A stretch of DNA of 64,000 nucleotides from Escherichia coli (GTDB taxonomy: Bacteria; Pseudomonadota; Gammaproteobacteria; Enterobacterales; Enterobacteriaceae). The notes under the pieces were generated by a model. That model was not told the DNA's origin. It was given only the letters and a program-made list of their open reading frames with translations, and did no database searches. The position numbers and the translations under genes are program-made. The stretch is from the NCBI RefSeq assembly GCF_050320075.1, contig NZ_CP190018.1. The stretch is one strand, 5' to 3'. Below, in pieces: positions 3,300 through 57,464 of this stretch. Within the stretch, counting starts at the first letter, position 1. Every line of letters starts with the position of its first letter.

Positions 3300-3660
3300 G
3301 GAGAGACTCCGGTTATTATTTACCTCGGTTAACAGCGCACCAGAAACAATAAGTACGATACAAAAGCACCGTATCTTCATTGTGCGGTCCATGCGAAGAC
3401 CGCATCACGACAGCACCACTGGCGATATTGCCGCGATAGCAAGCACTGTGGGGTGTCTGCATTTACGGTCATGGAACATCCTTTCCTAAAGCCAGCGCCC
3501 GTTTGCGAGACGGCGAAAAGGGCCGTCACGAATAATACTCTCATGTTTGAATAATTACTCTGTTTATTATCTTGACATAGCCAGGCATAAAAGAGAGTAT
3601 TTCAACACTGTGGGGTGCCTGCGTTGCTCCAGCAACACAAGTCAACCAGCTGGAAAGGCC
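3300..3660. ncRNA. candidate small RNA locus in the sseB-sseA intergenic region (ryfA-like position); strand and ends uncertain
   Basis: 500-bp non-coding gap with a TTGACA box near 3572, an internal 18-bp repeat (about 3445 and 3606) and a flanking bidirectional terminator; ryfA is recalled to lie between sseA and sseB in K-12. Confidence 0.3.
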
Positions 3661-12778: not shown

Positions 12779-13933
12779 ATGTCTGAACAATTAGTCACAC
12801 CTGAAAACGTCACCACGAAAGATGGAAAAATCAACCTGCTGGATCTCAACCGTCAGCAGATGCGGGAGTTTTTTAAAGATTTAGGTGAAAAACCCTTCCG
12901 CGCCGATCAGGTGATGAAGTGGATGTATCACTATTGCTGCGACAACTTTGATGAGATGACCGACATCAACAAAGTGTTGCGCGGCAAACTGAAAGAGGTG
13001 GCGGAGATCCGCGCACCGGAAGTGGTTGAAGAACAGCGTTCATCTGACGGCACCATTAAATGGGCAATTGCCGTTGGCGATCAGCGCGTCGAAACGGTGT
13101 ATATCCCGGAAGACGACCGTGCCACGCTCTGCGTCTCTTCGCAGGTGGGGTGTGCGCTGGAGTGTAAATTCTGTTCCACCGCCCAGCAGGGCTTTAACCG
13201 CAACCTGCGGGTATCGGAAATTATCGGCCAGGTGTGGCGTGCAGCGAAAATCGTCGGCGCAGCAAAAGTCACCGGTCAGCGTCCAATCACTAACGTAGTG
13301 ATGATGGGCATGGGCGAGCCGCTGCTCAACCTGAACAATGTCGTTCCGGCGATGGAAATCATGCTTGATGATTTCGGTTTTGGCCTGTCTAAACGTCGCG
13401 TGACGCTTTCCACTTCCGGTGTAGTTCCGGCGCTGGATAAACTGGGCGATATGATCGACGTTGCACTGGCAATTTCCCTGCACGCGCCGAACGACGAAAT
13501 TCGTGACGAAATTGTGCCGATCAACAAAAAGTACAATATCGAAACGTTCCTTGCTGCGGTACGCCGTTATCTGGAGAAATCCAACGCCAATCAGGGCCGA
13601 GTCACTATTGAATACGTGATGCTTGACCACGTTAACGACGGCACTGAACACGCGCACCAACTGGCGGAGCTACTGAAAGATACGCCGTGTAAGATCAACC
13701 TGATCCCGTGGAACCCGTTCCCTGGCGCGCCGTATGGACGCAGTTCGAACAGCCGTATCGACCGTTTCTCAAAAGTGCTGATGAGCTACGGTTTCACCAC
13801 TATTGTGCGTAAAACTCGTGGTGATGATATCGATGCTGCCTGTGGTCAGTTGGCGGGCGATGTTATCGACCGTACGAAACGTACCCTGCGTAAACGGATG
13901 CAGGGTGAAGCCATCGATATTAAAGCGGTCTGA
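12779..13933 (+). CDS. rlmN: dual-specificity rRNA/tRNA adenine C2 methyltransferase (radical SAM)
   Basis: 384-aa ORF with radical-SAM cysteine motif [10 protein letters not shown]. Confidence 0.95.
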
Positions 13934-13937
13934 TAGC

Positions 13938-13978
13938 CATTACGCCACGGTTACTTTATGTACCGTGGCGTAATCTTT
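13938..13978 (+). terminator. intrinsic terminator after rlmN
   Basis: Hairpin attacgccacggt...accgtggcgtaat followed by a T-rich tract. Confidence 0.5.
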
Positions 13979-14217
13979 TATGAATGAAGTATTAAGTTGC
14001 AATTGTCTGGTCAATATTAACGGTGCGTTTTTGCTGACTTTAAGGCAGTATGTAACGATGCAACAGTAAGTTAGCCTTAGTGAATGTGGGCTTTGTCACG
14101 AGCACACAGACGGTCTTATACTGTATGATAACGGTTAACTTAACGGATGTTTCGCGGTGTGGGTGAGCATGATGGTTCACCGGCATCTCAATTCTCATTT
14201 AAACGTACCTGCAGCGA

Positions 14218-15231
14218 ATGAATACTGAAGCCACGCACGACCAAAATGAAGCACTTACTACCGGCGCTCGCCTGCGTAATGCTCGCGAACAACTAGGACT
14301 TAGTCAGCAGGCCGTTGCCGAGCGACTTTGCCTGAAGGTTTCCACGGTACGCGACATTGAAGAAGATAAGGCACCCGCCGATCTTGCTTCAACATTCCTG
14401 CGCGGATATATCCGCTCTTATGCGCGTCTGGTACATATTCCAGAAGAAGAACTGCTGCCAGGGCTGGAAAAGCAGGCTCCACTTCGGGCTGCAAAAGTTG
14501 CGCCGATGCAGAGTTTTTCCCTCGGTAAACGCCGCAAAAAACGCGACGGCTGGCTGATGACCTTCACCTGGCTGGTGTTGTTTGTGGTTATCGGCCTGAG
14601 CGGTGCCTGGTGGTGGCAAGACCACAAAGCTCAGCAGGAAGAGATCACCACTATGGCCGATCAATCTTCGGCGGAATTGAGCAGTAATAGCGAGCAGGGG
14701 CAGAGTGTTCCGTTAAATACGTCGACAACTACAGACCCGGCTACAACGTCCACGCCGCCAGCGTCTGTGGATACTACCGCAACCAACACGCAAACACCTG
14801 CCGTAACTGCGCCAGCACCAGCTGTTGATCCGCAACAGAATGCGGTTGTTTCGCCTTCGCAGGCAAATGTTGATACCGCCGCGACCCCGGCACCAACGGC
14901 AACAACAACGCCAGATGGTGCTGCGCCGTTGCCAACCGATCAGGCTGGCGTGACCACGCCGGCGGCTGATCCGAATGCGCTGGTGATGAACTTTACTGCC
15001 GATTGCTGGCTGGAGGTCACTGATGCTACCGGTAAAAAACTGTTTAGCGGGATGCAGCGTAAAGACGGTAATTTGAATTTAACCGGCCAGGCACCGTATA
15101 AACTGAAAATTGGTGCGCCAGCCGCAGTACAGATCCAGTATCAAGGGAAACCTGTCGATCTGAGTCGTTTTATCAGAACTAACCAGGTTGCGCGTCTGAC
15201 CCTCAATGCCGAACAATCACCGGCGCAGTAA
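14218..15231 (+). CDS. rodZ: cytoskeleton protein RodZ
   Basis: 337-aa ORF with N-terminal HTH, one transmembrane segment and a Pro/Thr/Ala-rich periplasmic linker. Confidence 0.9.
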
Positions 15232-24526: not shown

Positions 24527-26104
24527 ATGACGGAAAACATTCATAAGCATCGCATCCTCATTCTGGACTTCGGTTCTCAGTATACTCAACTGGTTGCGCG
24601 CCGCGTGCGTGAGCTGGGCGTTTACTGCGAACTGTGGGCGTGGGATGTGACAGAAGCACAAATTCGTGACTTCAATCCAAGCGGCATTATTCTTTCCGGC
24701 GGCCCGGAAAGCACCACCGAAGAAAACAGCCCGCGTGCGCCGCAGTATGTCTTTGAAGCAGGCGTACCGGTATTCGGCGTTTGCTATGGCATGCAGACCA
24801 TGGCAATGCAGTTGGGCGGTCACGTTGAAGCCTCTAACGAACGTGAATTTGGCTACGCGCAGGTTGAAGTCGTAAACGACAGCGCACTGGTTCGCGGTAT
24901 TGAAGATGCTCTGACCGCAGACGGTAAACCTCTGCTCGATGTCTGGATGAGCCACGGCGATAAAGTTACCGCTATCCCGTCCGACTTCGTCACCGTAGCC
25001 AGCACCGAAAGCTGCCCGTTTGCCATTATGGCTAACGAAGAAAAACGCTTCTATGGCGTACAGTTCCACCCGGAAGTGACTCACACCCGCCAGGGTATGC
25101 GCATGCTGGAGCGTTTTGTGCGTGATATCTGCCAGTGTGAAGCCCTGTGGACGCCAGCGAAAATTATCGACGATGCTGTAACTCGCATCCGCGAGCAGGT
25201 AGGCGACGATAAAGTCATCCTCGGCCTCTCTGGTGGTGTGGATTCCTCCGTAACCGCAATGCTGCTGCACCGCGCTATCGGTAAAAACCTGACTTGCGTA
25301 TTCGTCGACAACGGCCTGCTGCGTCTCAACGAAGCAGAGCAGGTTCTGGATATGTTTGGCGATCACTTTGGTCTCAATATTGTTCACGTTCCGGCAGAAG
25401 ATCGCTTCCTGTCAGCGCTGGCTGGCGAAAACGATCCGGAAGCAAAACGTAAAATCATCGGGCGCGTTTTCGTTGAAGTATTCGATGAAGAAGCGCTGAA
25501 ACTGGAAGACGTGAAGTGGCTGGCGCAGGGTACTATCTACCCTGACGTTATCGAATCTGCGGCGTCTGCAACCGGTAAAGCACACGTCATCAAATCTCAC
25601 CACAACGTGGGCGGCCTGCCGAAAGAGATGAAGATGGGCCTGGTTGAACCGCTGAAAGAGCTGTTCAAAGACGAAGTGCGTAAGATTGGTCTGGAGCTGG
25701 GCCTGCCGTACGACATGCTGTACCGTCACCCGTTCCCGGGACCAGGCCTTGGCGTTCGTGTTCTGGGTGAAGTGAAGAAAGAGTATTGTGACCTGCTGCG
25801 CCGTGCTGACGCCATCTTCATTGAAGAACTGCGTAAAGCGGACCTGTACGACAAAGTCAGCCAGGCATTCACCGTCTTCCTGCCGGTACGTTCCGTTGGC
25901 GTAATGGGCGATGGTCGTAAGTATGACTGGGTTGTTTCTCTGCGTGCTGTCGAAACCATCGACTTTATGACCGCACACTGGGCGCATCTGCCGTACGATT
26001 TCCTCGGTCGCGTTTCCAACCGCATTATCAATGAAGTGAACGGTATTTCCCGCGTGGTGTATGACATCAGCGGCAAGCCACCAGCTACCATTGAGTGGGA
26101 ATGA
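24527..26104 (+). CDS. guaA: GMP synthase (glutamine-hydrolysing)
   Basis: 525-aa ORF with GATase catalytic cysteine (GVCYGMQ) and ATP-PPase motif SGGVDSS; C-terminus ...PATIEWE intact. Confidence 0.95.
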
Positions 26105-26149
26105 TTAACAGCTAACTCATAGCAAATCATTCCTATTCAGATGCCAACT

Positions 26150-26183
26150 CAACCCTCTGTTTTTGCAGAGGGTTTTTGTTTTT
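26150..26183 (+). terminator. intrinsic terminator after guaA
   Basis: Hairpin aaccctctgtttttgcagagggtt followed by tttgttttt. Confidence 0.7.
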
Positions 26184-26296
26184 ATGTATTCATTTCTATT
26201 CACTCTACACCATATTTTTCGGCGGTACAGGTGACGGTATTACCTTAAAGGTATACTCTCATACCGTCATGAAAATGGTTTCTATACGGGTGAATT

Positions 26297-27547
26297 GTGC
26301 TTACCGATACAAAATTAAAAAACCTCAAGCCGCAGGACAAACTGTACAAGGTCTCCGATCGTGACGGGCTGTATGTAGCTGTGCTTACGTCAGGCACGGT
26401 CTCATTTCGTTATGACTACCGTATCAACGGTCGCCGCGAAACACTGGTAATCGGGCAGTATGGGCGTGACGGTATCAGCCTGGCAGAAGCGCGGGAAGAA
26501 CTGATTGCTGCAAAGAAGCTGCTTAAAGCAGGCCAGTCACCGGCTGCGGCTAAACGTGACGGTATCAAAAAGATTCGTGGTGCCGAAACGTTTGCGGTAC
26601 ATACCGACAGTTATATGAAACACGTCATCCTGGCTGAAAGTACCCGCGCAATGAAGCAGGCAGTGATCGACCGTGACATACTTCCGGTTCTTGGCAACAA
26701 AATGATGGCTGAAATTACCACATCGATGGTTCGTGATTTGTGTGACCGGATTGTCGAACGCGGTGGCCGGGCAACAGCAGTGCAGGCCAGGGAGATCATC
26801 AGCAGCGTATACCATCACGCCAATGACCGTGGTCATGGTTTGTTTAATCCTGCGGCTGACATTAAGCCTTCGTCTATCGCCATATTTAAACCACGAGAGC
26901 GAACACTGACACCAGAAGAAATTGGCCTGTTCTTCCGCACGTTGGATGCCATTGGTGCTATGGGCACTATGAAAATGGCTTTAAAACTGGTGCTTATCAC
27001 TATGGTTCGTAAGGGCGAATTCACCAATGCAACGTGGGATGAAATAGATTTTAAAAAATGGACATGGACAATTCCTTCAGACCGCATGAAGGGAAGCCGG
27101 GCGCATGTTATTTACCTGCCTAAACAGGCTCAGGATATATTGGTCGGGTTGCAGATGTGCGCTGGTGGAAGTGAATATCTGGTTCCTGGTCGTTACAATT
27201 TCCGGAAGCCATTATCTAATGCCGCGCTGAACTCTCTGATCGACAGAACGGTGAAAATAATAAATGAAGATGGTGAGCATATTCAGGATTTCACCGTACA
27301 CGATATGCGCCGTACAGCCAGTACGTTGTTGCATGAGGCTGGTTATCCTTCAGACTGGATTGAAAAGGCTCTGGCACATGAGCAGAAAGGTGTGCGCGCC
27401 GTATATAACAAAGCGGAATACGCCAGACAGCGCGCCTACATGTTGCAGCAGTGGGCCGATATGATAGATTCCTGGATTAACGGGGAGCATACGGATCTGA
27501 TTCCGTTCTCCCCGTCGAAGTTTGAGAAGTGGATGGCGAGGGAATAA
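26297..27547 (+). CDS. int: tyrosine integrase (P4-type, arm-binding N-terminal domain)
   Basis: 416-aa ORF; N-terminus TDTKLKNLKPQDKLYKVSDRDGLYVAV; catalytic HxxR (HDMRRT) and C-terminal Tyr region; lies at the prophage-host junction. Confidence 0.9.
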   Translation: MLTDTKLKNLKPQDKLYKVSDRDGLYVAVLTSGTVSFRYDYRINGRRETLVIGQYGRDGISLAEAREELIAAKKLLKAGQSPAAAKRDGIKKIRGAETFAVHTDSYMKHVILAESTRAMKQAVIDRDILPVLGNKMMAEITTSMVRDLCDRIVERGGRATAVQAREIISSVYHHANDRGHGLFNPAADIKPSSIAIFKPRERTLTPEEIGLFFRTLDAIGAMGTMKMALKLVLITMVRKGEFTNATWDEIDFKKWTWTIPSDRMKGSRAHVIYLPKQAQDILVGLQMCAGGSEYLVPGRYNFRKPLSNAALNSLIDRTVKIINEDGEHIQDFTVHDMRRTASTLLHEAGYPSDWIEKALAHEQKGVRAVYNKAEYARQRAYMLQQWADMIDSWINGEHTDLIPFSPSKFEKWMARE

Positions 27548-27550
27548 CGT

Positions 27551-27745
27551 TTAATTATTCTGCTGATTTTCTTCCATCTCGGCTTCTGCTGCCAGTGATT
27601 CAATTTTATCTGTGAATATTGCTGACAGTGTTGCAAATTCAGCATCAGTGACAGCGGGAATTGGAACAAACCTGATCCCGCTGTGTGCAAGCATGTTTGC
27701 AGTTTCAAGGCATTTCCTTAAATCTGCTGGTGATGCCCTGTTCAT
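27551..27745 (-). CDS. hypothetical small phage protein (64 aa)
   Basis: ATG overlaps the stop of the upstream methyltransferase gene (ATGA), consistent with translational coupling. Confidence 0.45.
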   Translation of the reverse strand: MNRASPADLRKCLETANMLAHSGIRFVPIPAVTDAEFATLSAIFTDKIESLAAEAEMEENQQNN

Positions 27746-28793: not shown

Positions 28794-29042
28794 TCATGCC
28801 GCGTTGCTCACGGGACGATATACACGTTGCTGAACAGGAGGTTTTTTACCCTGGAACTCTGCCGGGCTTGCTGCCTGACGTTCATCAAGCCAACGCTCAA
28901 CTTCATCACGGTTCCATGCGCAGCGTTTATCGGTGATATACCAGCGTTTAGGAAATTCCCCTGCGCGCTCCATACGGTCGATAGTGCTCCATGACAGTGG
29001 AACCACCGCCAGGAGTTCCTTCTTACCTAATGCACCTTTCAT
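28794..29042 (-). CDS. AlpA-like HTH regulator / excisionase family protein
   Basis: 82-aa protein with the pattern ELLAVVPLSWSTIDRMERAGEFPKRWYI...WNRDEVERWL typical of the AlpA prophage regulator fold. Confidence 0.6.
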   Translation of the reverse strand: MKGALGKKELLAVVPLSWSTIDRMERAGEFPKRWYITDKRCAWNRDEVERWLDERQAASPAEFQGKKPPVQQRVYRPVSNAA

Positions 29043-36612: not shown

Positions 36613-37542
36613 ATGACCACTATTACCAAAGAGCGACTGCTGACAATCAGGCAGTGGCGCGAAACATACGGACCTGGTAGCAACGTTGTACTGCCAGCAG
36701 AAGAAGCGGAAGAACTGGCACGAATTGCTCTGGCATCGCTGGAGCAGAATGTACTATCGGGCAACTCTCCGCTTATTCCTGGTGAAGTGTTGTCCGCAAT
36801 CCGGGAGGTTGCCAGGATTCGTGCCGATTTCGATGATTTTGACGGTGACAGGCGAGGTATCGGTGATTGTCTGGATGAGGCCGAGCAAGAGCTTATCGTT
36901 ACCATTAACAAATATGCCAGTCAGTTGGCAGCAGAACCGATAGCGACTAATGACGTTCGAGAGCAGCAGACAGCCGTTCCGCCAGTTCCGGAAATACAGG
37001 ATGATGTCGCGCAAGCAATTGAAAATCTCAAGCAGAAGTTAGTGGAATGCAATCGCTATAACTACTGCGCAGATGCAGTTAAAGGCGTAGAGGATGCCTG
37101 CCATGCTGCCATGCTTCATAGTGCCGAACCTGCAAGTAATCATGAAGAGTTGCCGCTTGATTATCTCCAAGGTCAAAAAGATGGTCTTGAATGGGCTGCG
37201 CAGCTTGCAGAAGCAAATCACCCACAAACTGGCGACTGGCTTTACGATGACCCGCTGGAGGTGGCTAAAGCTATCAGAAAAGGTCCTGACATGCCCGAAT
37301 TCGATGGACCAACTCCGGCAACTCCGGATGGTTGGATAAGCTGTAGTGAGCGAATGCCGAACGATAAACAGTATGTTTGGTGTTGGGGTAAGTCTTACGG
37401 CTGGACTGAGTGCGATACCTTCGAAGGGTATTACGATTGGTCGAGAAACAAATGGTGGGCAGTTACTGACGATGGGGAAGAACCGGCATCGAAAGTAACC
37501 CACTGGATGCCGCTACCAGAACCGCCGCAGGAGGTGAAGTGA
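36613..37542 (+). CDS. hypothetical phage protein with DUF551-like C-terminus
   Basis: 309-aa ORF; C-terminal WISCSERMPNDKQYVWCW...VTHWMPLPEPP resembles the phage DUF551 domain. Confidence 0.5.
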   Translation: MTTITKERLLTIRQWRETYGPGSNVVLPAEEAEELARIALASLEQNVLSGNSPLIPGEVLSAIREVARIRADFDDFDGDRRGIGDCLDEAEQELIVTINKYASQLAAEPIATNDVREQQTAVPPVPEIQDDVAQAIENLKQKLVECNRYNYCADAVKGVEDACHAAMLHSAEPASNHEELPLDYLQGQKDGLEWAAQLAEANHPQTGDWLYDDPLEVAKAIRKGPDMPEFDGPTPATPDGWISCSERMPNDKQYVWCWGKSYGWTECDTFEGYYDWSRNKWWAVTDDGEEPASKVTHWMPLPEPPQEVK

Positions 37543-40847: not shown

Positions 40848-40924
40848 TGGCGTGGCATGCAGGATTCGAACCTGCGACCAACCGCTTAGAAGGCGGTTGC
40901 TCTGTCCAACTGAGCTAATGCCAC
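40848..40924 (-). tRNA. tRNA-Arg (anticodon UCU), phage-encoded
   Basis: Manual cloverleaf: acceptor GTGGCAT/ATGCCAC, D-arm GCTC/GAGC, anticodon stem ACCGC/GCGGT, loop CTTCTAA (UCU), T-arm GCAGG-TTCGAAT-CCTGC, discriminator G, CCA encoded; closely resembles host argU. Confidence 0.85.
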
Positions 40925-41573: not shown

Positions 41574-43253
41574 ATGGCGGAAACAACTAAAGAGCGATTG
41601 AGCAAACAGTTCGCACAACTTGAAAGCGAGCGTCAGTCGTTCGAGCCGCACTGGCGCGAGTTGAGTGATTACATCAACCCGCGTGGTTCCCGCTTTCTGA
41701 CTTCTGAGGCCAACCGTAACGATCGGCGCAATACACACATTATTGATTCGACCGGGACTATGGCGGCGCGCACTCTCGCCAGCGGCATGATGTCAGGCAT
41801 CACAAGCCCCGCGCGTCCGTGGTTTCGCCTGGCTACGCCAGATCCTGAAATGATGGATTATGGCCCTGTTAAGTTGTGGCTTGAGGCGGTGCAGAACCGC
41901 ATGAACGATATGTTCAATAAGTCGAATCTCTATCAGTCGCTGCCGCAGTTATACGGAAGCCTCGGCACATACAGCACCGGTGCAATGGCGGTACTGGAGG
42001 ATGATGAGGACATCATTCGCACAATGCCATTCCCGATAGGCAGTTACTACCTGGCTAACTCACCTCGTGGCAGTGTTGACACCTGTTTTCGCAAGTTCTC
42101 TATGACTGTTCGTCAGCTTGTTCAGGAGTTCGGGCTAAATAACGTCAGCGAATCCGTAAAAAGCATGTGGGAAAGCGGCATCTACGAGAAGTGGATTGAC
42201 GTGATGCATTCGGTTTACCCGAACATTGACCGCGATACATCGAAGCTGGATAGCAAGAACAAGCCATTCAAATCGGTTTATTACGAGGTTGGTGGCGATA
42301 ACGACAAGTTGTTGCGTGAGTCCGGATTCGATGAGTTTCCAATTATGGCTCCGCGCTGGGAAGTTAACGGTGAAGATGTTTATGGATCATCATGCCCGGG
42401 CATGCTGGCGCTTGGACCTGTTAAGGCATTGCAGCTTCTCCAGAAGCGCAAGTCGCAGTTGATTGATAAAGCCACCAATCCGCCGATGGTTGCTCCGACT
42501 TCCCTCAAGAATCAGCGCGCCTCCCTTCTTCCTGGCGACATCACGTATATCGATCAGATTACTGGTCAGGATGGCTTCAGGCCTGCTTATCTGGTTAACC
42601 CCAGTACAGCAGATTTGGTGGCAGACATTCAGGACACTCGTCAAATCATTAACAGCGCCTACTTTGTCGATCTGTTCATGATGTTGCAGAACATCAATAC
42701 CCGCTCGATGCCTGTTGAAGCGGTGATCGAAATGAAAGAAGAAAAACTTCTGATGTTGGGGCCGGTTCTGGAGCGTCTGAACGACGAATGTCTTAATCCT
42801 CTCATTGACCGCGCTTTCTCGATGATGGTGCGTAAAAACATGCTGCCGCCACCGCCTGACGCGATGGAAGGCATGCCCCTGAAGGTCGAATACATTTCCG
42901 TCATGGCTCAGGCGCAGAAGTCTATCGGCCTGTCCAGTCTGGCGTCCACGGTTAACTTCATTGGTCAACTTGCGCAAGCGAAACCAGAAGCTCTCGACAA
43001 ACTCAACGTTGATCAGGCGATCGATGCATTCGCTGATATGTCCGGAGTGTCTCCAACCGTCATTGTTCCGCAGGAACAGGTTGAGCAGGCTCGCCAGCAA
43101 CGGGCACAGCAGCAACAGCAGCAACAAATGATGGCGATGGGGATGGCGGCGGCACAGGGGGCCAAGACGCTAAGCGAAGCTAAAACTTCGGATCCGAGTG
43201 TTTTGTCAGCTATGGCGAATGCAGTTAGTGGTCAGGGTGGGCAATCACAATGA
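41574..43253 (+). CDS. portal protein
   Basis: 559-aa ORF downstream of the large terminase and upstream of scaffold and capsid; size and Q-rich C-terminal tail typical of podovirus portals. Confidence 0.7.
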   Translation: MAETTKERLSKQFAQLESERQSFEPHWRELSDYINPRGSRFLTSEANRNDRRNTHIIDSTGTMAARTLASGMMSGITSPARPWFRLATPDPEMMDYGPVKLWLEAVQNRMNDMFNKSNLYQSLPQLYGSLGTYSTGAMAVLEDDEDIIRTMPFPIGSYYLANSPRGSVDTCFRKFSMTVRQLVQEFGLNNVSESVKSMWESGIYEKWIDVMHSVYPNIDRDTSKLDSKNKPFKSVYYEVGGDNDKLLRESGFDEFPIMAPRWEVNGEDVYGSSCPGMLALGPVKALQLLQKRKSQLIDKATNPPMVAPTSLKNQRASLLPGDITYIDQITGQDGFRPAYLVNPSTADLVADIQDTRQIINSAYFVDLFMMLQNINTRSMPVEAVIEMKEEKLLMLGPVLERLNDECLNPLIDRAFSMMVRKNMLPPPPDAMEGMPLKVEYISVMAQAQKSIGLSSLASTVNFIGQLAQAKPEALDKLNVDQAIDAFADMSGVSPTVIVPQEQVEQARQQRAQQQQQQQMMAMGMAAAQGAKTLSEAKTSDPSVLSAMANAVSGQGGQSQ

Positions 43254-49677: not shown

Positions 49678-50222
49678 TGTGCGATCCGGTTATTGCTGGT
49701 GGCGCAATGCTCGCCATGAGTGGCATTCAGGCATACACCCAGTACCAACAGGGAAAGTATGCCTCGAAGGTTGCAGAAGCGAACGCAGATATAGCCACAG
49801 CTCAGGCAAATGATGCAATAAACAGAGGTAACGCTGAAGCTGAGCAACGGCGCAGAGAGACCCGACAGCGGCTTGGTACACAGGCGGCGACAATGGGGGC
49901 TACCGGCGCTGATTTATCTACAGGTAACGCGCTGGATATATTTGGTGACACTGCTCAGTTTGGCGCTCTTGATTCGCTAACGACGGTGAATAACGCGCAA
50001 CGCGAGGCTTACGGTTATCAGGTTCAGGCTGCCAACTATAAAGCAGAAGCCAGATCAGCCCGTAAACAGGGGAATGTGGGAGCAGCAACAACATTGCTCA
50101 CTGCGCCTCTGAAGGCATACGGTGCGTACCAGATGTTTGGTGGGACGTGGAGTCCGTTTACTCAAAGCACTCCTGCGCCAATCGGGGCAGCAGCAGGAAC
50201 CAGATTACCCGGAGGATTATAA
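49677..50222 (+). CDS. hypothetical internal virion protein
   Basis: 181-aa Ala/Gln-rich ORF coupled to neighbours. Confidence 0.4.
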   Translation: MCDPVIAGGAMLAMSGIQAYTQYQQGKYASKVAEANADIATAQANDAINRGNAEAEQRRRETRQRLGTQAATMGATGADLSTGNALDIFGDTAQFGALDSLTTVNNAQREAYGYQVQAANYKAEARSARKQGNVGAATTLLTAPLKAYGAYQMFGGTWSPFTQSTPAPIGAAAGTRLPGGL

Positions 50223-52843
50223 TGCCAGTCGTACCAACAGTATCCGGACGTCAGGTTGAGAGCCGTGGAGTTCAGTCAGCAGGCTTGCAGATGTTTTCTC
50301 AGCCAGGTATTGGTGATGCTTTTGTTCTGGCAGGGGCAGAGGCTATTGATGTTCTGGGTCAGGCAAAACAGCGTGCCAATATTGCCTTGGTTCAGGAGGC
50401 ATCCCTTAAACTCAGTCAGACAGGCAGCGATCTGCTGAATAACCCTGAAACAGGTTTGCTTAACCTGAAAGGGAAAAATGCTATTGGAAAAGGTCAGGAG
50501 TATACGCAGCAGTTTGATGCTCAGGTCGAACAACTGGCTATGTCGCTGCCGGATGAACAGGCTCGTAATGCTTTCATGCAGCAGGCGCAGCAGCAGCGCA
50601 TTCAGTTCACTACGCAGGCCGGGAGGTACGAAATAGGACAGGTTCGCCAGTATGAGGCGGATATGCAGGATGCGACACTAAAAAACCTATCGATGCAGTT
50701 CCGTAACCCGACAATGGCAAACCAGGCAGGATTGAAGGCATATCATAGCATCATCGCTTACGGAGAAGCCCACGGCCAGAGTCAGGAAGAGATCGAACAG
50801 AACTGGGTTTCGTGGCGCGAGAATGCCGCGAACGGTGCGGCGGAGGCGTGGTATGTGCCGATGTATCAACAGATGATGGGTCCGAACGGCAAGATTGAGG
50901 TAACCGATACACCGAGTGAGGCGCAGTTATTCTCTGCAATAATCTGGCAGGAGAGTGGCGGAAATCAGTACGGAAAGGACGGAACACCTCTGGTGTCGCC
51001 AAAAGGCGCTGTTGGCGTAGCGCAGGTGACGGAAGATACTGGCCCCGAAGCTGCCCGCCTTGCTGGCGTGCCGTGGGACCGCGATAAATGGTTGAATGAC
51101 CCGCGCTATAATGCCCGCTTGGGGCAAGCTTATTTCGGCGCGCAGATGAAGAAATACGACAATAACCCGGTTCTGGCAGTAGCTGCCTATAACGCTGGCC
51201 CAGGAAAGGTTGACGGCTGGATTAAACAGATTGGCGATCCGCGCACAGGCGAAGTCAGTAACGCCCAGTTTGCCGCAGCTATCCCATACGACGAGACGCG
51301 CAATTATGTGGCAAAAGTAACTGGCAGTGCTGGAGCTATTCCTGGATCTGCGACGATGGAAAACCTCATCGCACAGCCATTCTGGAACGCCATGAGTCCG
51401 GACAAAAAGTCGCAGATGATGAGCAAGGTTGCTGGCATGTACGACATGCAGGCTTCAGCCGGTCGCGTTGCGCTACAGAGTCGAATGCAGGACGACCTAT
51501 CCAAAATTGAGGCCGGTAAGCAGGTGACGCCTATTTCAGCGCACGAATGGGCCGCCGTTATGCCGCTTCAGGCAGCGCCTGCCGAGCGCCTGCAGATGGA
51601 AAAAACCTTCCAGCAATACCAGCAGGCAATGACGCTACAACCTGTTTATCAGACCATTATGCAGGGCAACGTCCAGCAGGGTACCGCCGCCGTGCAGGCA
51701 ATGGCACCGCAGGAAAACGACCCTGACTTTAAATACAAAGCAGAGCTTTATGCATCGGCAAAGGTCAAGCTTGGGCAGGTACTGAAGGCGCGGGAAGCGG
51801 ATCCGGGGGCATGGCTGCAACAAAACTCTCCGGTTGTGCAGGCTGCATTCCAGCAGTACCTGAATGACCCTTCATCTGGTGAATACCTAGTTTCCCGCAT
51901 ACAGTCTGAAAAAGACCGCCTGGGGATAATGAGCAAAAAAGTTTTACCGGAGTCCATGGTCAACGACGTACTGCAGCGTATTGACAACACGCAGGAATCT
52001 AGCGTAAAGGCCATTCAGTCGGTGGCGCAGTCGTTCGGCAAATACTCGGATCAGGTGATGCGGCAGGTGCAAAATAAAGCATTCCCAGCTTTAAAGGTTG
52101 TAATGTCTACAGAAAACCAACGGGCAGCAGATGCGTTGTGGCAAATACGGAATGTACCTACTTCTGATTTGAGATCTGGTTTGGATAAAAACCAGGCAGA
52201 CAGTGCAGACTCATCGTGGACAGATCAATTTAAAGATTTTTCTTCAACTCTTATTCCTCAGAGAAATGGTGCTGAAAACTGGACTATTTATAACGAGCAG
52301 GGAAAACGCTTGACCTACAACTACATGCAGCGCGGAATGTCGGCGTCTGATGCAGCAAAACAGGCGTATCAGGACCTTCTCGGCGAGCAGTACCAGACCA
52401 ATGGCACTTGGCGGCTACCTAATCGTGCAGGGGTAGATATTCGTGACGTTAACGATGGTGCCAATGCGTATCTGAAAAACCTGTCAGCAGATCAGATTAT
52501 GCCGCTTATTGGTGACCCAAGGCTACCTGATGAGGTCAACCGTGAGCAGAGTATCTCCCGCATTCGTGATAATGCGCAGTGGGTTACCAACAGCGACGAA
52601 ACAGGACTTACCCTGATGCTCAACGGGCTGATCGTCAACGGTGCCGACGGCAACTCGATTACGGTGACGTTCAACGATCTGGCGAAACTGGGAACAACCA
52701 ACCGATCAGTATGGAACCGCATTACCAAGTTCATTGATACTCCGGTGAAATATACTCCCGGACAGTCTAAGGAATACAGCGCAGAAAGTCAGCGCGACAA
52801 CCTGATTAACATTTTCCAGAACGGCCAGCAATCAGGACGATAA
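50222..52843 (+). CDS. internal virion/ejection protein with lytic transglycosylase (SLT) domain
   Basis: ORF 50147-52843; start placed at ATG 50222; SLT motifs ...WQESGGNQ...GAVGVAQVT...AYNAGPGKV. Confidence 0.75.
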   Translation: MPVVPTVSGRQVESRGVQSAGLQMFSQPGIGDAFVLAGAEAIDVLGQAKQRANIALVQEASLKLSQTGSDLLNNPETGLLNLKGKNAIGKGQEYTQQFDAQVEQLAMSLPDEQARNAFMQQAQQQRIQFTTQAGRYEIGQVRQYEADMQDATLKNLSMQFRNPTMANQAGLKAYHSIIAYGEAHGQSQEEIEQNWVSWRENAANGAAEAWYVPMYQQMMGPNGKIEVTDTPSEAQLFSAIIWQESGGNQYGKDGTPLVSPKGAVGVAQVTEDTGPEAARLAGVPWDRDKWLNDPRYNARLGQAYFGAQMKKYDNNPVLAVAAYNAGPGKVDGWIKQIGDPRTGEVSNAQFAAAIPYDETRNYVAKVTGSAGAIPGSATMENLIAQPFWNAMSPDKKSQMMSKVAGMYDMQASAGRVALQSRMQDDLSKIEAGKQVTPISAHEWAAVMPLQAAPAERLQMEKTFQQYQQAMTLQPVYQTIMQGNVQQGTAAVQAMAPQENDPDFKYKAELYASAKVKLGQVLKAREADPGAWLQQNSPVVQAAFQQYLNDPSSGEYLVSRIQSEKDRLGIMSKKVLPESMVNDVLQRIDNTQESSVKAIQSVAQSFGKYSDQVMRQVQNKAFPALKVVMSTENQRAADALWQIRNVPTSDLRSGLDKNQADSADSSWTDQFKDFSSTLIPQRNGAENWTIYNEQGKRLTYNYMQRGMSASDAAKQAYQDLLGEQYQTNGTWRLPNRAGVDIRDVNDGANAYLKNLSADQIMPLIGDPRLPDEVNREQSISRIRDNAQWVTNSDETGLTLMLNGLIVNGADGNSITVTFNDLAKLGTTNRSVWNRITKFIDTPVKYTPGQSKEYSAESQRDNLINIFQNGQQSGR

Positions 52844-52844
52844 C

Positions 52845-54542
52845 ATGCCAATTTACACAGATGATCCGGGACAGGGCATTAACCAGCCAATTGGCAACGC
52901 GCCAGCAGGGCTTGGCGAATCGCTGCTTTCTTCCCTTAAGCAGGGATTTGAAGAGGGGCCGGTCATGTCCGGCTACCGCTTTGCGCAGGTCGACTCGCTG
53001 GCGAATGACCCAAACTCTACAGTTATCAGTAAGCAGGACGCAGATGAGCTCCTGAAGCAGTACGGCGTAAAGAGCATAAACGTGCCAGATTCTGGCGTTA
53101 CGCAGGCTTTTCTCGATCATGTTATTGCCGAACGCAAAGATTCTCTGGCACGCCAGCAGATTGCGATGTCGGCACCGAGCGGGTGGGTAGCCACGCCGCT
53201 TAATTTCGCAGCCAGCCTAGCTGGTTCAATGGCAGATCCTGGTAACGTGGCGCTGGCGCTGGTTCCGTTCGCTGGAGAAGCAAAGGCAGCTTCTGTGCTT
53301 GGCCGATTTGGCGAGCGATTTGTTGCGGGTGCACGCATGGGGGCAGCGCAGGCGGTGGTGACCGTGCCGTTTACCGGGCTGGCAGCGGCGGCGGAAGGTG
53401 ACGACTTCACCTATAGCAACGCGTTGGAAAGTACTTTCTTTAACACGATGGCTGGCGGTCTAATGCATGCCGGCGGCGGCCTTATCGCCGATATCGTGCG
53501 ACCGCGTCGCGTTCCCGATGCTGCAACGGGAGAGTCCCCGGCGTTTTCTGGCGATGCGCAGCCAACCCCGGTGATAACGCCTGACAACATTCCGGCGGGC
53601 GTGAATATCCCTGAGGTTGGCGCTAACGCAGATCTGGCGGCGGCCATTTCCAGTGAAGCGGAGAGCTACGCATACAGCCGGGCTTATGACGACGTGGTTC
53701 CTGACTATATGGCGCGCCAGCAGGAGTTACAGAGCGGACAGATCGGTAACGTTGCCGACCTGCGTGCCGAGCTTGCGGCTAATCAACGTCATGCTGACTC
53801 GCTTGATGCGACTCTGCAGCAGCGCACCAAAAAGTATCAGGGGCAGCGGATGAAGTTTAAGGATGCGCGCTCTAGGGCACTGAAAGAGATTCAGGCCGAG
53901 AAAGACGCCATCGCTGCACGCAATCAGGAGATCAACACATCGCTGGAGCAGAACGCGACAGCAGAGCAGGCGCGCTGGCACCAGTCTCAGATTTCCCGCG
54001 GCGAGATCCCCGACGACCTGAAAGTCACCATTTCCGAGCGTGCGCAGCAGATCCTGGACGGCATGCAGATGTCGCCGATCGCTGGCGCAGTTCGCACTGC
54101 CGCAAGCGCCATCAGGGATGCTGACTGGAGCGTGAACCAGCAGGCGTATCGCGCTGCGCTGGCACACATGATGGAAGGACGTAGCCCAGATGTTGAGCCC
54201 TTCTATGAACTGCACAAATCGGCACTGCGTGAACGCGCCATCCATCGCATACAGAACCCGGCACGGCAGGTTGATGAAACGGCTCGCCCAGTAAGCGAAA
54301 CAGCCGATCGGGTTTATCAAGAAACGCAAAAGGCAGATCATGAAATTACCGCTGCCGCTGCAGACCTTGATAACGAGCTCAACCTGAGTAACGCCCTGCT
54401 TGACGATATCGCTGTCGATAACCCTGATCTTGCGACCACGTTGCGCCAGAAACTCAATGATATTCGTGCCGACGCCAGCGACAATAGCATGAGCAACGCT
54501 TTCCGGGCATTTGCCGCCTGTATGATTAACCGGGGGATGTGA
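52845..54542 (+). CDS. internal virion/ejection protein
   Basis: 565-aa ORF in the ejection-protein block. Confidence 0.45.
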   Translation: MPIYTDDPGQGINQPIGNAPAGLGESLLSSLKQGFEEGPVMSGYRFAQVDSLANDPNSTVISKQDADELLKQYGVKSINVPDSGVTQAFLDHVIAERKDSLARQQIAMSAPSGWVATPLNFAASLAGSMADPGNVALALVPFAGEAKAASVLGRFGERFVAGARMGAAQAVVTVPFTGLAAAAEGDDFTYSNALESTFFNTMAGGLMHAGGGLIADIVRPRRVPDAATGESPAFSGDAQPTPVITPDNIPAGVNIPEVGANADLAAAISSEAESYAYSRAYDDVVPDYMARQQELQSGQIGNVADLRAELAANQRHADSLDATLQQRTKKYQGQRMKFKDARSRALKEIQAEKDAIAARNQEINTSLEQNATAEQARWHQSQISRGEIPDDLKVTISERAQQILDGMQMSPIAGAVRTAASAIRDADWSVNQQAYRAALAHMMEGRSPDVEPFYELHKSALRERAIHRIQNPARQVDETARPVSETADRVYQETQKADHEITAAAADLDNELNLSNALLDDIAVDNPDLATTLRQKLNDIRADASDNSMSNAFRAFAACMINRGM

Positions 54543-57091
54543 TGGCAGCAAACGAATTTTTGACGCAGTGCGAGCGCAGTGTAAATGCTGCCGCTGGTCG
54601 CGAGCTTTCTTCCGATGAGATGGAGTCGCTGGTGCGTGACATGAACGACACCACTAGGCGAATTCTGGCGACCAATGAGGCGCTGTCTCTGGAAGAGGCC
54701 GCGATGCGCGCAGCGGAAGAACTGAGCAATGCCGATATGCTGGCAAAACAGATTGAGTCCCGCAATAAGGCAATCAACACCCGTATTGCCGCACAACGAC
54801 TTAGAGAGCTTCGTACTATCTGGAAAGACCGCCCGGATATCGGGCTTGAAGCAATGCTGGTTGGCCGCAACGATGCGCGTACCGGCGCCCGCCGGTCGGT
54901 ATCTTCGGAGGTGGCGCAACTGCGCGGCAAGTATCATTCCGGTATCAACTACGATTTTGACCGTGCCGGGCTGGTGCAATTCATCGCCAGCGGCAGCAAT
55001 GACAGGGAAATTGCCGATGCAATGTGGCGCATAGGGCGCGGGCAGTCAACTGACGGTATGACAAGGCAATCCGTAAGCGCTGCACAAATCATCATGAAAT
55101 GGCAGGAAACTGCGCACATTGATGAGAACCGCGCCGGGGCATGGATACGCAAAGAGCCGGGCTATATAGTGCGCCAGTCACACGACATCATGAAGATCCG
55201 CGCCGCAGGTTATGAAGCATGGCGAAATGCTATTCTCCCGCGCCTTGATGAGCGCACTTTTGACGGCGTGGCTGACCGCGAGCAGTTCATGCGTAACATT
55301 TATAACGGGCTGGCTTCCGGCGTGCATCTTACATCTGAAAAGCCCGATTGGATGAATGGCTTTAAGGGATCGGCGAACGCAGCTAAACGCGCCAGCCAAG
55401 AGCGAATTTTGCACTTCAAAGATGGTATCTCGTGGCACGAGTACAACCAGCAATTCGGCACCGGCAGCCTGCGAGAGGCGCTGTTTGGTGGCTTAAACAG
55501 CGCTGCCCGCACAACGGGCATGATGCGCGTACTGGGCACTAACCCACAGAACATGTTTAAGTACCTGACGGACACCATTGCTGAAGATATCAGCAAATCC
55601 GGAAGACCGGCAGCGTTGGCTGACTACATGACGAAGGTGCGTCGCATTAACCGTACCGTAATGCCGCAGGTTGACGGCTCGCTAAATATTCCTGGCAGCG
55701 TAGGCTGGGCCAATGCGTCGGCGGCTGTACGCGGCTGGTTGCGTATGAGCCAGCTTGGTGGCGCGGTAATCTCATCGTTTAACGACGTGCCTATCGCCGC
55801 TACCGAGATGCGCTACCAAGGGCAGAATTTTATGCAGGCGTTGCTTGGTGCTATGAGAGGCCGCTTCACGCGTTACAACAGCGCGGAGCAGAAAGAGATC
55901 CTTTCCTCTATCGGAGTTTATTCCGACTCCATGACGCAGGAAATCATCCGGCGTATATCTGGTGATGACACGCTGAATGGAAAACTTGGTCGCGCGCAGC
56001 AGCTTTTCTTTAAGTACAACCTCATGAACTTCTGGACCGAGAGCGGTCGCAACAGCAACGCCATGATGATAACCAACTGGCTTGCAAAGAATGCTGACCA
56101 GCCTCATGCGCGGCTACCGGAAGACCTGCGACGCGTGCTGGATCTGCACGGTATTGGCGAACGTGAGTGGGAAATTTTTCGCAACATGGACATGGCCGAT
56201 AGCGAAGGTCGTAAGTTCATGACGACCAGCGGCATCCGCGGCGTGCCTGACGAAGTGATTGCCGGTTATGTAGAGAGTAAGGGGATCAAGCCAACGCAGC
56301 GCGCTATCGCTGACGCACGCGATCAATTGGAAGGGCAGTTGCGCGGCTACATCCTTGACCGCCTGAATATCGCCATGTCAGAGCCTGGCGATCGCACGCA
56401 GGCGTTTATGAAGATGGGCACGGTGCCAGGAACGGTGGCTGGGGAAGCAATACGATTCGCTGGTCAGTACAAATCGTTCACTGCAAGCTTCATGCAGAAC
56501 GTACTAGGACGCGAAGTATTCGGGCGTGGTTATATTCCTGCTGGGCTTGGTGAGTCGAAAACCGGATCGCTGACGAATGCTCTGCTGCGTAACGGGAAGG
56601 GGGCTTTCCTTGGTGCTGCAAACCTCTTTGTCTGGGCGACTATGTTTGGTTATATCTCCATGCAGTCAAAACTCATGCTGAAAGGGCAAACACCACGCCC
56701 GGCAGATGCCAAGACGTTTCTCGCAGCCGCATCTCAGGGGGGCGGTCTTGGCATCTTGGGTGACTTCATGTTTGGCGAGGTCAACCGCATGGGGGCCGGG
56801 CCGGTTACGTCGCTAATGGGACCGGCAGCATCGAACGCTGACAGCATTATCACGCTGCTCCAGCAGACCACGAGAGGGGATGCAGATTTGGGTGACTGGT
56901 ATCGCACGGCACTTGACAATACGCCATTCCTCAACGTGTTCTGGCTTCGTACGGCGATGAATGGTTTAATATTGAACCGGATACAAGATGCCCTTGACCC
57001 AGGCTCTCTTGAGCGTTATCAGCGCCGTGTTGAGCGTGAGCAGGGTAACGAATTTCTGATCCCACCATCGCAGTTCATGCTAGGGAAGTAA
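54542..57091 (+). CDS. internal virion/ejection protein (large)
   Basis: ORF 54539-57091; ATG 54542 overlaps the upstream stop. Confidence 0.45.
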   Translation: MAANEFLTQCERSVNAAAGRELSSDEMESLVRDMNDTTRRILATNEALSLEEAAMRAAEELSNADMLAKQIESRNKAINTRIAAQRLRELRTIWKDRPDIGLEAMLVGRNDARTGARRSVSSEVAQLRGKYHSGINYDFDRAGLVQFIASGSNDREIADAMWRIGRGQSTDGMTRQSVSAAQIIMKWQETAHIDENRAGAWIRKEPGYIVRQSHDIMKIRAAGYEAWRNAILPRLDERTFDGVADREQFMRNIYNGLASGVHLTSEKPDWMNGFKGSANAAKRASQERILHFKDGISWHEYNQQFGTGSLREALFGGLNSAARTTGMMRVLGTNPQNMFKYLTDTIAEDISKSGRPAALADYMTKVRRINRTVMPQVDGSLNIPGSVGWANASAAVRGWLRMSQLGGAVISSFNDVPIAATEMRYQGQNFMQALLGAMRGRFTRYNSAEQKEILSSIGVYSDSMTQEIIRRISGDDTLNGKLGRAQQLFFKYNLMNFWTESGRNSNAMMITNWLAKNADQPHARLPEDLRRVLDLHGIGEREWEIFRNMDMADSEGRKFMTTSGIRGVPDEVIAGYVESKGIKPTQRAIADARDQLEGQLRGYILDRLNIAMSEPGDRTQAFMKMGTVPGTVAGEAIRFAGQYKSFTASFMQNVLGREVFGRGYIPAGLGESKTGSLTNALLRNGKGAFLGAANLFVWATMFGYISMQSKLMLKGQTPRPADAKTFLAAASQGGGLGILGDFMFGEVNRMGAGPVTSLMGPAASNADSIITLLQQTTRGDADLGDWYRTALDNTPFLNVFWLRTAMNGLILNRIQDALDPGSLERYQRRVEREQGNEFLIPPSQFMLGK

Positions 57092-57092
57092 T

Positions 57093-57464
57093 ATGAACAG
57101 AATTATATTAATGATTATTCTTATGCTTTTAGCTGTAAAATCTTTTGCAGATACTACCTCACCGTTAATGATTCAGCCTAAAAATGGGGAAACACTGGAG
57201 GACTCTAAAAAGCATACAATGGAATATTTTGGATGTATAAAAGGGCAGGCCGTAAAATACGCTAAGACAGGAGAAAGTGTTGATTCTATATCCAAAGCTT
57301 CGGTTGTGTCATGCGAGTCGTACATACAAAAGATTGCTGAATCAAATATATACTATTTAAATTCCTCTCAAGACGGTAAGCGGAAATTTATTGGAAGGCT
57401 TAAATCAGATGGTGAAAATTTAGCAACGAAATTTGCTATGGATGAAAAGCTAAAAAATAAATAG
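57093..57464 (+). CDS. secreted protein of unknown function (moron)
   Basis: 123-aa ORF with N-terminal signal peptide MNRIILMIILMLLAVKSFA; conspicuously AT-rich coding sequence. Confidence 0.5.
   Translation: MNRIILMIILMLLAVKSFADTTSPLMIQPKNGETLEDSKKHTMEYFGCIKGQAVKYAKTGESVDSISKASVVSCESYIQKIAESNIYYLNSSQDGKRKFIGRLKSDGENLATKFAMDEKLKNK

Follow-up and report, generated by a model that had tools for sequence, protein, structure and literature searches.

attL of a phiV10/epsilon15-type prophage at the 3' end of guaA in Escherichia coli

Positions 26090-26296 of a 64-kb stretch of Escherichia coli DNA (64,000 nucleotides, hereafter the window) almost certainly form the attL of a complete temperate podovirus of the phiV10/epsilon15 type (genus Uetakevirus), inserted at the canonical site at the 3' end of guaA. 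The junction is already known, being the published canonical attachment site both of this phage genus and of the wider integrase cluster, and its significance is slight beyond correct annotation. The gene, the junction and the phage DNA that follows it are placed as listed here.

24527-26104, plus strand: guaA (GMP synthase), intact, from the open reading frame list, comparison with K-12 and the annotation of RefSeq strains
26090-26106, plus strand: attL core, the 17-bp identity or crossover segment ATTGAGTGGGAATGATT, a unique 17-mer placed by four-way alignment
26107-26296, plus strand: former attP P' arm, the phage sequence that separates the core from int, 98-99.9% identical to phiV10, ZX5 and EC.W1-9
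26107-64000, plus strand: Uetakevirus-type prophage body, from gene content in strain YZLc1-3, continuing about 1.27 kb past the end of the window to the attR core

The guaA product is full length, with the C-terminus ...PPATIEWE, and is identical to K-12 GuaA at 523 of 525 residues, in agreement with the intact gene ending at 26104 that the first-pass annotation described. The core ATTGAGTGGGAATGATT is composed of the last four guaA codons (ATT GAG TGG GAA), the stop codon TGA and TT, and the crossover segment therefore lies within the 3' end of the gene, which stays intact because the phage copy of the core regenerates its end. Using megablast with positions 25600-27600 as the query against 5,426 complete E. 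coli genomes, guaA was matched in 5,425, and a contiguous guaA site is present in 4,464. In more than 4,800 empty-site genomes the homology stops at query base 507, corresponding to 26106 in the window, two bases past the guaA stop codon, and the segment 26107-26296 is absent from empty-site E. coli. Comparison with an empty site had been proposed as a check; it confirms the junction, but with homology ending at 26106 rather than farther downstream. The accompanying expectation, that attL would lie within about 135 bp downstream of guaA, was off by roughly 15-135 bp, as the core overlaps the stop codon. The prophage boundary thus belongs at 26090-26106, inside the guaA 3' end.

Within the window ATTGAGTGGGAATGATT occurs once, even with two mismatches allowed (0.01 expected). 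The attR end was read in the near-identical public genome of strain YZLc1-3 and not in the window DNA; YZLc1-3 differs from the window by 2 mismatches across 38 kb (26001-64000) and by none upstream. A second copy of ATTGAGTGGGAATGATT is located 39,184 bp downstream in this strain (locus coordinates 42061-42077), corresponding to window-equivalent 65274-65290, and attR is therefore outside the 64-kb window. The first-pass annotation had placed the right junction beyond the window and had anticipated a short direct repeat at the far end of the prophage, which is the 17-bp segment found in YZLc1-3. The inserted DNA in YZLc1-3 spans from the end of guaA to just before yfgI, and yfgI directly follows guaA in K-12.

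A four-way alignment of attB, attL, attP and attR, in which the attP sequences are those of the free phage genomes phiV10 and epsilon15 and the empty site is that of K-12, has one copy of ATTGAGTGGGAATGATT in each of K-12 attB, phiV10 attP and epsilon15 attP. An excised phage site would read from the P arm through ATTGAGTGGGAATGATT into AACAGCTAACTC.... In the alignment, attL corresponds to attB-left, core and attP-right, and attR to attP-left, core and attB-right. Joining attL-left, core and attR-right in silico gives a healed site of 177 nt that is found uninterrupted and 100% identical in many prophage-free strains, which shows that insertion was precise and duplicated 17 bp. Immediately to the right of the attR core there is a departure from K-12 (TTTTGATCCC compared with TTTGACCC; an extra T and a C-to-T change) that we considered as an integration scar and rejected; uninterrupted empty sites carry the same variant, and it is therefore an ordinary strain polymorphism.

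The core was derived here independently of the published one, and the two match exactly. In phage ZX5 the attP/attB core 'attgagtgggaatgatt' is positioned 190 bp 5' of int, the integration site is the guaA 3' end, and attB, attL and attR were verified by PCR and Sanger sequencing (PMC9782041); a passage of the same paper states that this sequence is also the attP of phiV10 and epsilon15. Phage TL-2011b is likewise reported to sit in guaA (PMC3293862). The window shares with phiV10, epsilon15 and ZX5 the identical core attgagtgggaatgatt, its placement about 190 bp upstream of int, and integration at the guaA 3' end, and with phiV10 and epsilon15 also a terminator and arm repeats at the same positions. 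For int and the P' arm together, nucleotide identity is 98% with phiV10 and 81% with epsilon15. There is no difference from these phages at the junction, and the prophage is mosaic relative to them elsewhere (tail fibre, accessory genes and a block at 51001-57450).

The DNA between the core and int contains a stem-loop followed by a T tract.

26151-26183, plus strand: phage-borne intrinsic terminator with a 10-bp stem and T tract, from hairpin folding, a terminator scan and phage records

The hairpin itself occupies 26151-26174, with the T tract extending to about 26183, and it is predicted to be stable (-16.7 kcal/mol, z = -4.7); it starts 43 nt past the core. The first-pass annotation had called 26150-26183 the guaA terminator, and although the hairpin and T tract are real, they are not guaA's own, being phage-borne in phiV10 and epsilon15. 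If they were, guaA and its terminator would both be host DNA and attL would lie between about 26105 and 26240. The hairpin does lie where a guaA terminator would be expected, and in the right orientation, and it is identical at 24 of 28 positions to the true native one, and this resemblance is why it was misread as the host's. But in such a layout the homology to empty sites should not be lost at 26106, nor should 26107-26296 be found in free phage genomes, where the hairpin is located just to the right of the attP core and is entered as a rho-independent terminator in the records of both phiV10 and epsilon15. Moreover, the native guaA terminator AACCCTCTGTTACTACAGAGGGTTTTTT is located to the right of attR. 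The healed 177-nt site contains nothing from 26107 onward. The hairpin at 26151-26183 thus belongs to the phage, stands in for the native guaA terminator and should be labelled phage-derived. We regard the host-DNA layout as extremely improbable. By sequence, integration appears to swap terminators, such that guaA would gain the phage hairpin, and that of guaA would pass to the lysis genes at the other end of the phage.

To the right of the terminator are the integrase gene and a set of repeats related to its putative binding sites, with an AlpA-family gene farther into the prophage.

26231-26240, plus strand: putative arm-type integrase-binding repeat GTGACGGTAT in the P' arm, matching epsilon15 record positions 1627-1636 ('protein_bind integrase')
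26261-26270, minus strand: arm-type repeat, inverted and with one mismatch (ATGACGGTAT), from a motif scan
26297-27547, plus strand: int, tyrosine integrase of 416 aa with P4-type architecture, from the open reading frame list, Pfam and alignments
26466-26475, plus strand: putative arm-type repeat GTGACGGTAT within the int coding region, matching epsilon15 record 'integrase' site 1862-1871
26556-26565, plus strand: putative arm-type repeat GTGACGGTAT within the int coding region, matching epsilon15 record 'integrase' site 1952-1961
28794-29042, minus strand: AlpA-family helix-turn-helix protein, from Pfam Phage_AlpA; the homologue phiV10p36 is annotated as AlpA family

A prophage-type motif had been noticed near 26240, and it corresponds to GTGACGGTAT, whose only exact copies in the 64 kb are those starting at 26231, 26466 and 26556, together with the inverted one-mismatch copy at 26261. 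Allowing up to one mismatch there are 15 matches in the window, compared with 2.5 expected. A further exact copy is located in the P arm near attR (YZLc1-3 locus 41980-41989). The repeat positions coincide with the features entered as 'protein_bind: integrase' in the epsilon15 GenBank record. The int reading frame begins with a GTG codon at 26297, the start that had been assigned previously; a sigma-70 promoter scan gave no candidate int promoter in 25900-26500.

Assignment of the integrase to the P4 type is borne out by its three-domain architecture (Arm-DNA-bind_3, PF13356, 4e-20; Phage_int_M, PF22022, 1.7e-11; Phage_integrase, PF00589, 1.4e-19) and by alignment with P4 Int, with which it shares this architecture and 28% identity over the full length (E 5e-41). 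The NCBIfam model PRK09692 gives a domain-level match that is below the full-length cut-off. Candidate catalytic residues R238, H335, R338, H361 and Y370 align with their counterparts in P4 Int and in the Int of the resistance island GIsul2, with the R, HxxR, H and Y (nucleophile) motifs all in register. The P4 attP is also organized similarly, in that it adjoins int and its arm repeats are found to the left and right of the core, reaching into the int coding region.

P4 integrates at the 3' end of a tRNA-Leu gene, and integration at tRNA 3' ends is typical of the P4 cluster without being defining for the IntSXT subgroup. Unlike P4 Int, the window Int falls in a distinct group that is specific for guaA. 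This 'epsilon15 cluster' of the IntSXT subgroup, in which every member is reported to use the guaA 3' end as its target (PMC8138268), also includes the integrases of GIsul2 and CMGI-3. The insertion described here is at guaA and not at a tRNA 3' end, which fits the epsilon15 cluster, and a tRNA target cannot be assumed from a 'P4-type' integrase. No tRNA gene was found at the junction by ARAGORN in a scan of the 64-kb window, as the first-pass annotation had stated. The sole tRNA in the window, tRNA-Arg(TCT) at 40848-40924 on the minus strand, is deep within the prophage, with a Gp49-family gene on one side and the portal operon on the other; it belongs to the phage and has no connection with the attachment site.

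By analogy with lambda- and P4-type integrases, the 416-aa Int would use its N-terminal arm-binding domain to contact the GTGACGGTAT arm-type repeats; in the predicted layout the P arm has a single repeat and the P' arm has four, of which two are inside int. Its core-binding and catalytic domains would bind core-type sites in or flanking the 17-bp segment, with strand exchange presumably occurring inside the segment of identity and assisted by host bending proteins. Excision would be the reversal of this reaction, with the AlpA-family protein encoded at 28794-29042 as the directionality factor; such an excisionase role is likely by comparison with P4 Vis, CP4-57 AlpA and GIsul2 AlpA. After integration, guaBA transcription is expected to stop at the phage terminator before it reaches int, and the original guaA terminator would then sit behind the phage lysis genes at attR.

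The identity of the element is reflected in both its nucleotide sequence and its gene content. Across 26105-27600 the window is 99.9% identical to EC.W1-9, 98.1% to phiV10, 97.9% to vB_EcoP_ZX5 and 97.9% to TL-2011b, compared with about 81% for Salmonella phage epsilon15 and its relatives, and the first 25 kb of the prophage are about 97% identical to phiv142-3, PAS61 and ZX5 over 80-88% of the length. The RefSeq annotation of YZLc1-3 has a full podovirus gene complement and lists a lambdoid-style early region; genes for terminase, portal, protease, capsid and a Bbp16-type cement protein; internal virion proteins; and a T7 gp14-like core protein, transglycosylase, tail fibre, holins, endolysin and spanin.

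A non-phage island of the GIsul2/CMGI-3 type can also occupy guaA, and several features of the element could be read in this way. GIsul2 integrates at the guaA 3' end with an 8-bp core, GAGTGGGA (PMC9376610), which falls inside the 17-mer of the window, and its Int is 54% identical and 72% similar to that of the window over 396 aa without gaps. In both, int is downstream of the core in the same orientation, an element-borne hairpin begins 43 nt past the core, and there is an AlpA-family gene, alpA following int in GIsul2. However, GIsul2 is a 15-kb mobilizable resistance island and not a phage, with arm-repeat and terminator-stem sequences of its own, and when gene content is compared with the copy in plasmid pAB3, nothing of the GIsul2 backbone (alpA-repA-repC-trbJKL-TA-ars-resG-ISCR2-sul2) is present in the prophage save the AlpA-family gene. 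Lacking repA/repC, trb, ars and sul2, encoding terminase, portal, capsid, internal virion proteins, tail fibre, holin and endolysin, and being about 97% identical to isolated Uetakeviruses, the element is a prophage, and its interpretation as an island is barely credible. Two other integrases recovered as weak tblastn matches, a truncated plasmid integrase beside IS2 and raffinose genes and an Acinetobacter plasmid integrase, were considered and rejected as being GIsul2 Int.

Two regions of the prophage stand out. For the block of large internal-virion or ejection proteins at 51001-57450 (open reading frames 50147-52843, 52845-54542 and 54539-57091), megablast gave no close match in the phage records that otherwise match best, and its G+C content of 55-58% is higher than that of the remaining prophage (about 48-51%); the block resembles a mosaic module that has been exchanged. 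At about 36613-37542 in the window (YZLc1-3 locus 13400-14329), three short coding sequences including a truncated DUF551 are marked incomplete by RefSeq, an indication of some minor decay in the early region or of scars that recombination left there.

These two features, the three small incomplete fragments and the roughly 6.5-kb block of internal virion proteins without a close match in sequenced phages, would also be compatible with a fixed, non-excisable remnant in the canonical site, for which the junction would be a fossil attL. Such a remnant is unlikely, if less remote than the previous two alternatives. Against it, int is full length with all of its catalytic motifs, both 17-bp cores and all of the arm repeats are intact, and the morphogenesis and lysis genes are all annotated as intact in YZLc1-3. 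In addition, the close relative ZX5 is spontaneously induced, and its excision and integration have been demonstrated (PMC9782041). We therefore favor a complete temperate prophage, and none of the observations speaks against the assignment of attL.

The first-pass annotation had regarded the guaA end as a less usual target, and this view is not supported, given the epsilon15 cluster, the published ZX5 core, the use of the site by GIsul2 and the frequency in E. coli. The integrase of the window is found beside guaA, at high coverage, in 566 of the 5,426 complete E. coli genomes (about 10%), and as the cluster as a whole targets guaA, the location is nothing out of the ordinary for integrases of this clade. 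The guaA end resembles a tRNA 3' end in being an extremely conserved sequence that is regenerated by the element upon insertion. About 960 of the 5,426 genomes are without a contiguous guaA-yfgI attB, compared with the 566 that have the integrase; the remaining non-contiguous sites probably represent other occupants or divergent right flanks.

A scan for the 17-mer in one genome per species (GTDB) returned at least 120 loci, a large majority of which are guaA 3' ends (...TIEWE stop), with roughly 17 being chance matches that have no guaA translation. Among the matches listed, the guaA loci include Alpha-, Beta- and Gammaproteobacteria, Clostridia, Bacteroidia and one MAG labelled Euryarchaeota. 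At least 37 of the loci have a tblastn match to the integrase (43-86% identity) starting no more than 1.5 kb past the core and on the same strand; among the matches listed, about 25 of 37 are near full length and start 190-320 nt after the core, and the rest are partial or are ended by the edge of the locus. One group of identical sequences spread across several genera led, via plasmid pAB3, to GIsul2 (int-alpA-repA-repC-trbJKL-ars-ISCR2-sul2). Because the ...TIEWE-stop end is so widely conserved, it is a shared hotspot for phages, GIsul2-type islands and other elements across the Proteobacteria.

The phage terminator resembles the native guaA terminator more closely than do other terminator-like hairpins in the sequences compared here. 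When the phage hairpin (26151-26178) is compared with the native E. coli guaA terminator (K-12 locus 3532-3559; YZLc1-3 locus 42103-42130), every stem base is identical among the 24 of 28 matching positions, with three of the differences located in the loop and the fourth at the last base of the tail. The same native terminator matches 168 other terminator-like hairpins at no more than 21 of 28 positions, and usually at 10-16. This suggests, from sequence comparison, either that the P' arm is derived from a guaA 3' flank that was picked up, for instance through aberrant excision, or that the similarity has been kept by selection. A host guaA flank that gave rise to the arm might be recognized by the spacing of about 43 nt together with the sequence TTAACAGCTAACTCATAGC....

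A hairpin with a T tract, borne by the element, also starts 42-45 nt after the core in 16 of the 33 integrase-bearing loci examined among the matches listed, GIsul2 included (L009, L018, L026, L032, L047, L070, L071, L084, L087, L093, L101, L112, L117, L118, L124 and L127). The survey covered the first 80 nt after the 17-mer with a simple detector, and in that interval the same detector found no such hairpin in Alphaproteobacterial members of the same integrase clade. It is possible, if on balance doubtful, that the hairpin terminator is a built-in functional part of the attachment site in guaA-targeting elements. If so, a 'terminator swap' of this kind would preserve proper termination of guaBA and shield int from transcription entering from the host. 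A replacement terminator may be a part of these sites that selection maintains.

Sequences resembling the GIsul2 attL arm, with tctggca repeats and the gcccgcgtaaNtgcgggc terminator, are positioned directly after guaA in loci from E. albertii, Pantoea, Lelliottia and Enterobacter (L013, L030, L043 and L015). No integrase homologue is present within 2-6 kb downstream at these four loci, which may be island remnants or differently organized elements. In many Clostridia MAGs a conserved segment of ~90 nt immediately follows the guaA stop codon (tcagaRgcccgRaaaagcc...ggcaacgatttggcaacaYttttcattattca; loci L008, L036, L040, L051, L076, L079, L081, L083, L091, L106 and L107). A distant tyrosine integrase of about 23% identity is encoded about 1.3 kb downstream in L036, L083 and L096, the last having a more divergent flank, and these Firmicutes loci probably represent a different family of guaA-targeting elements.
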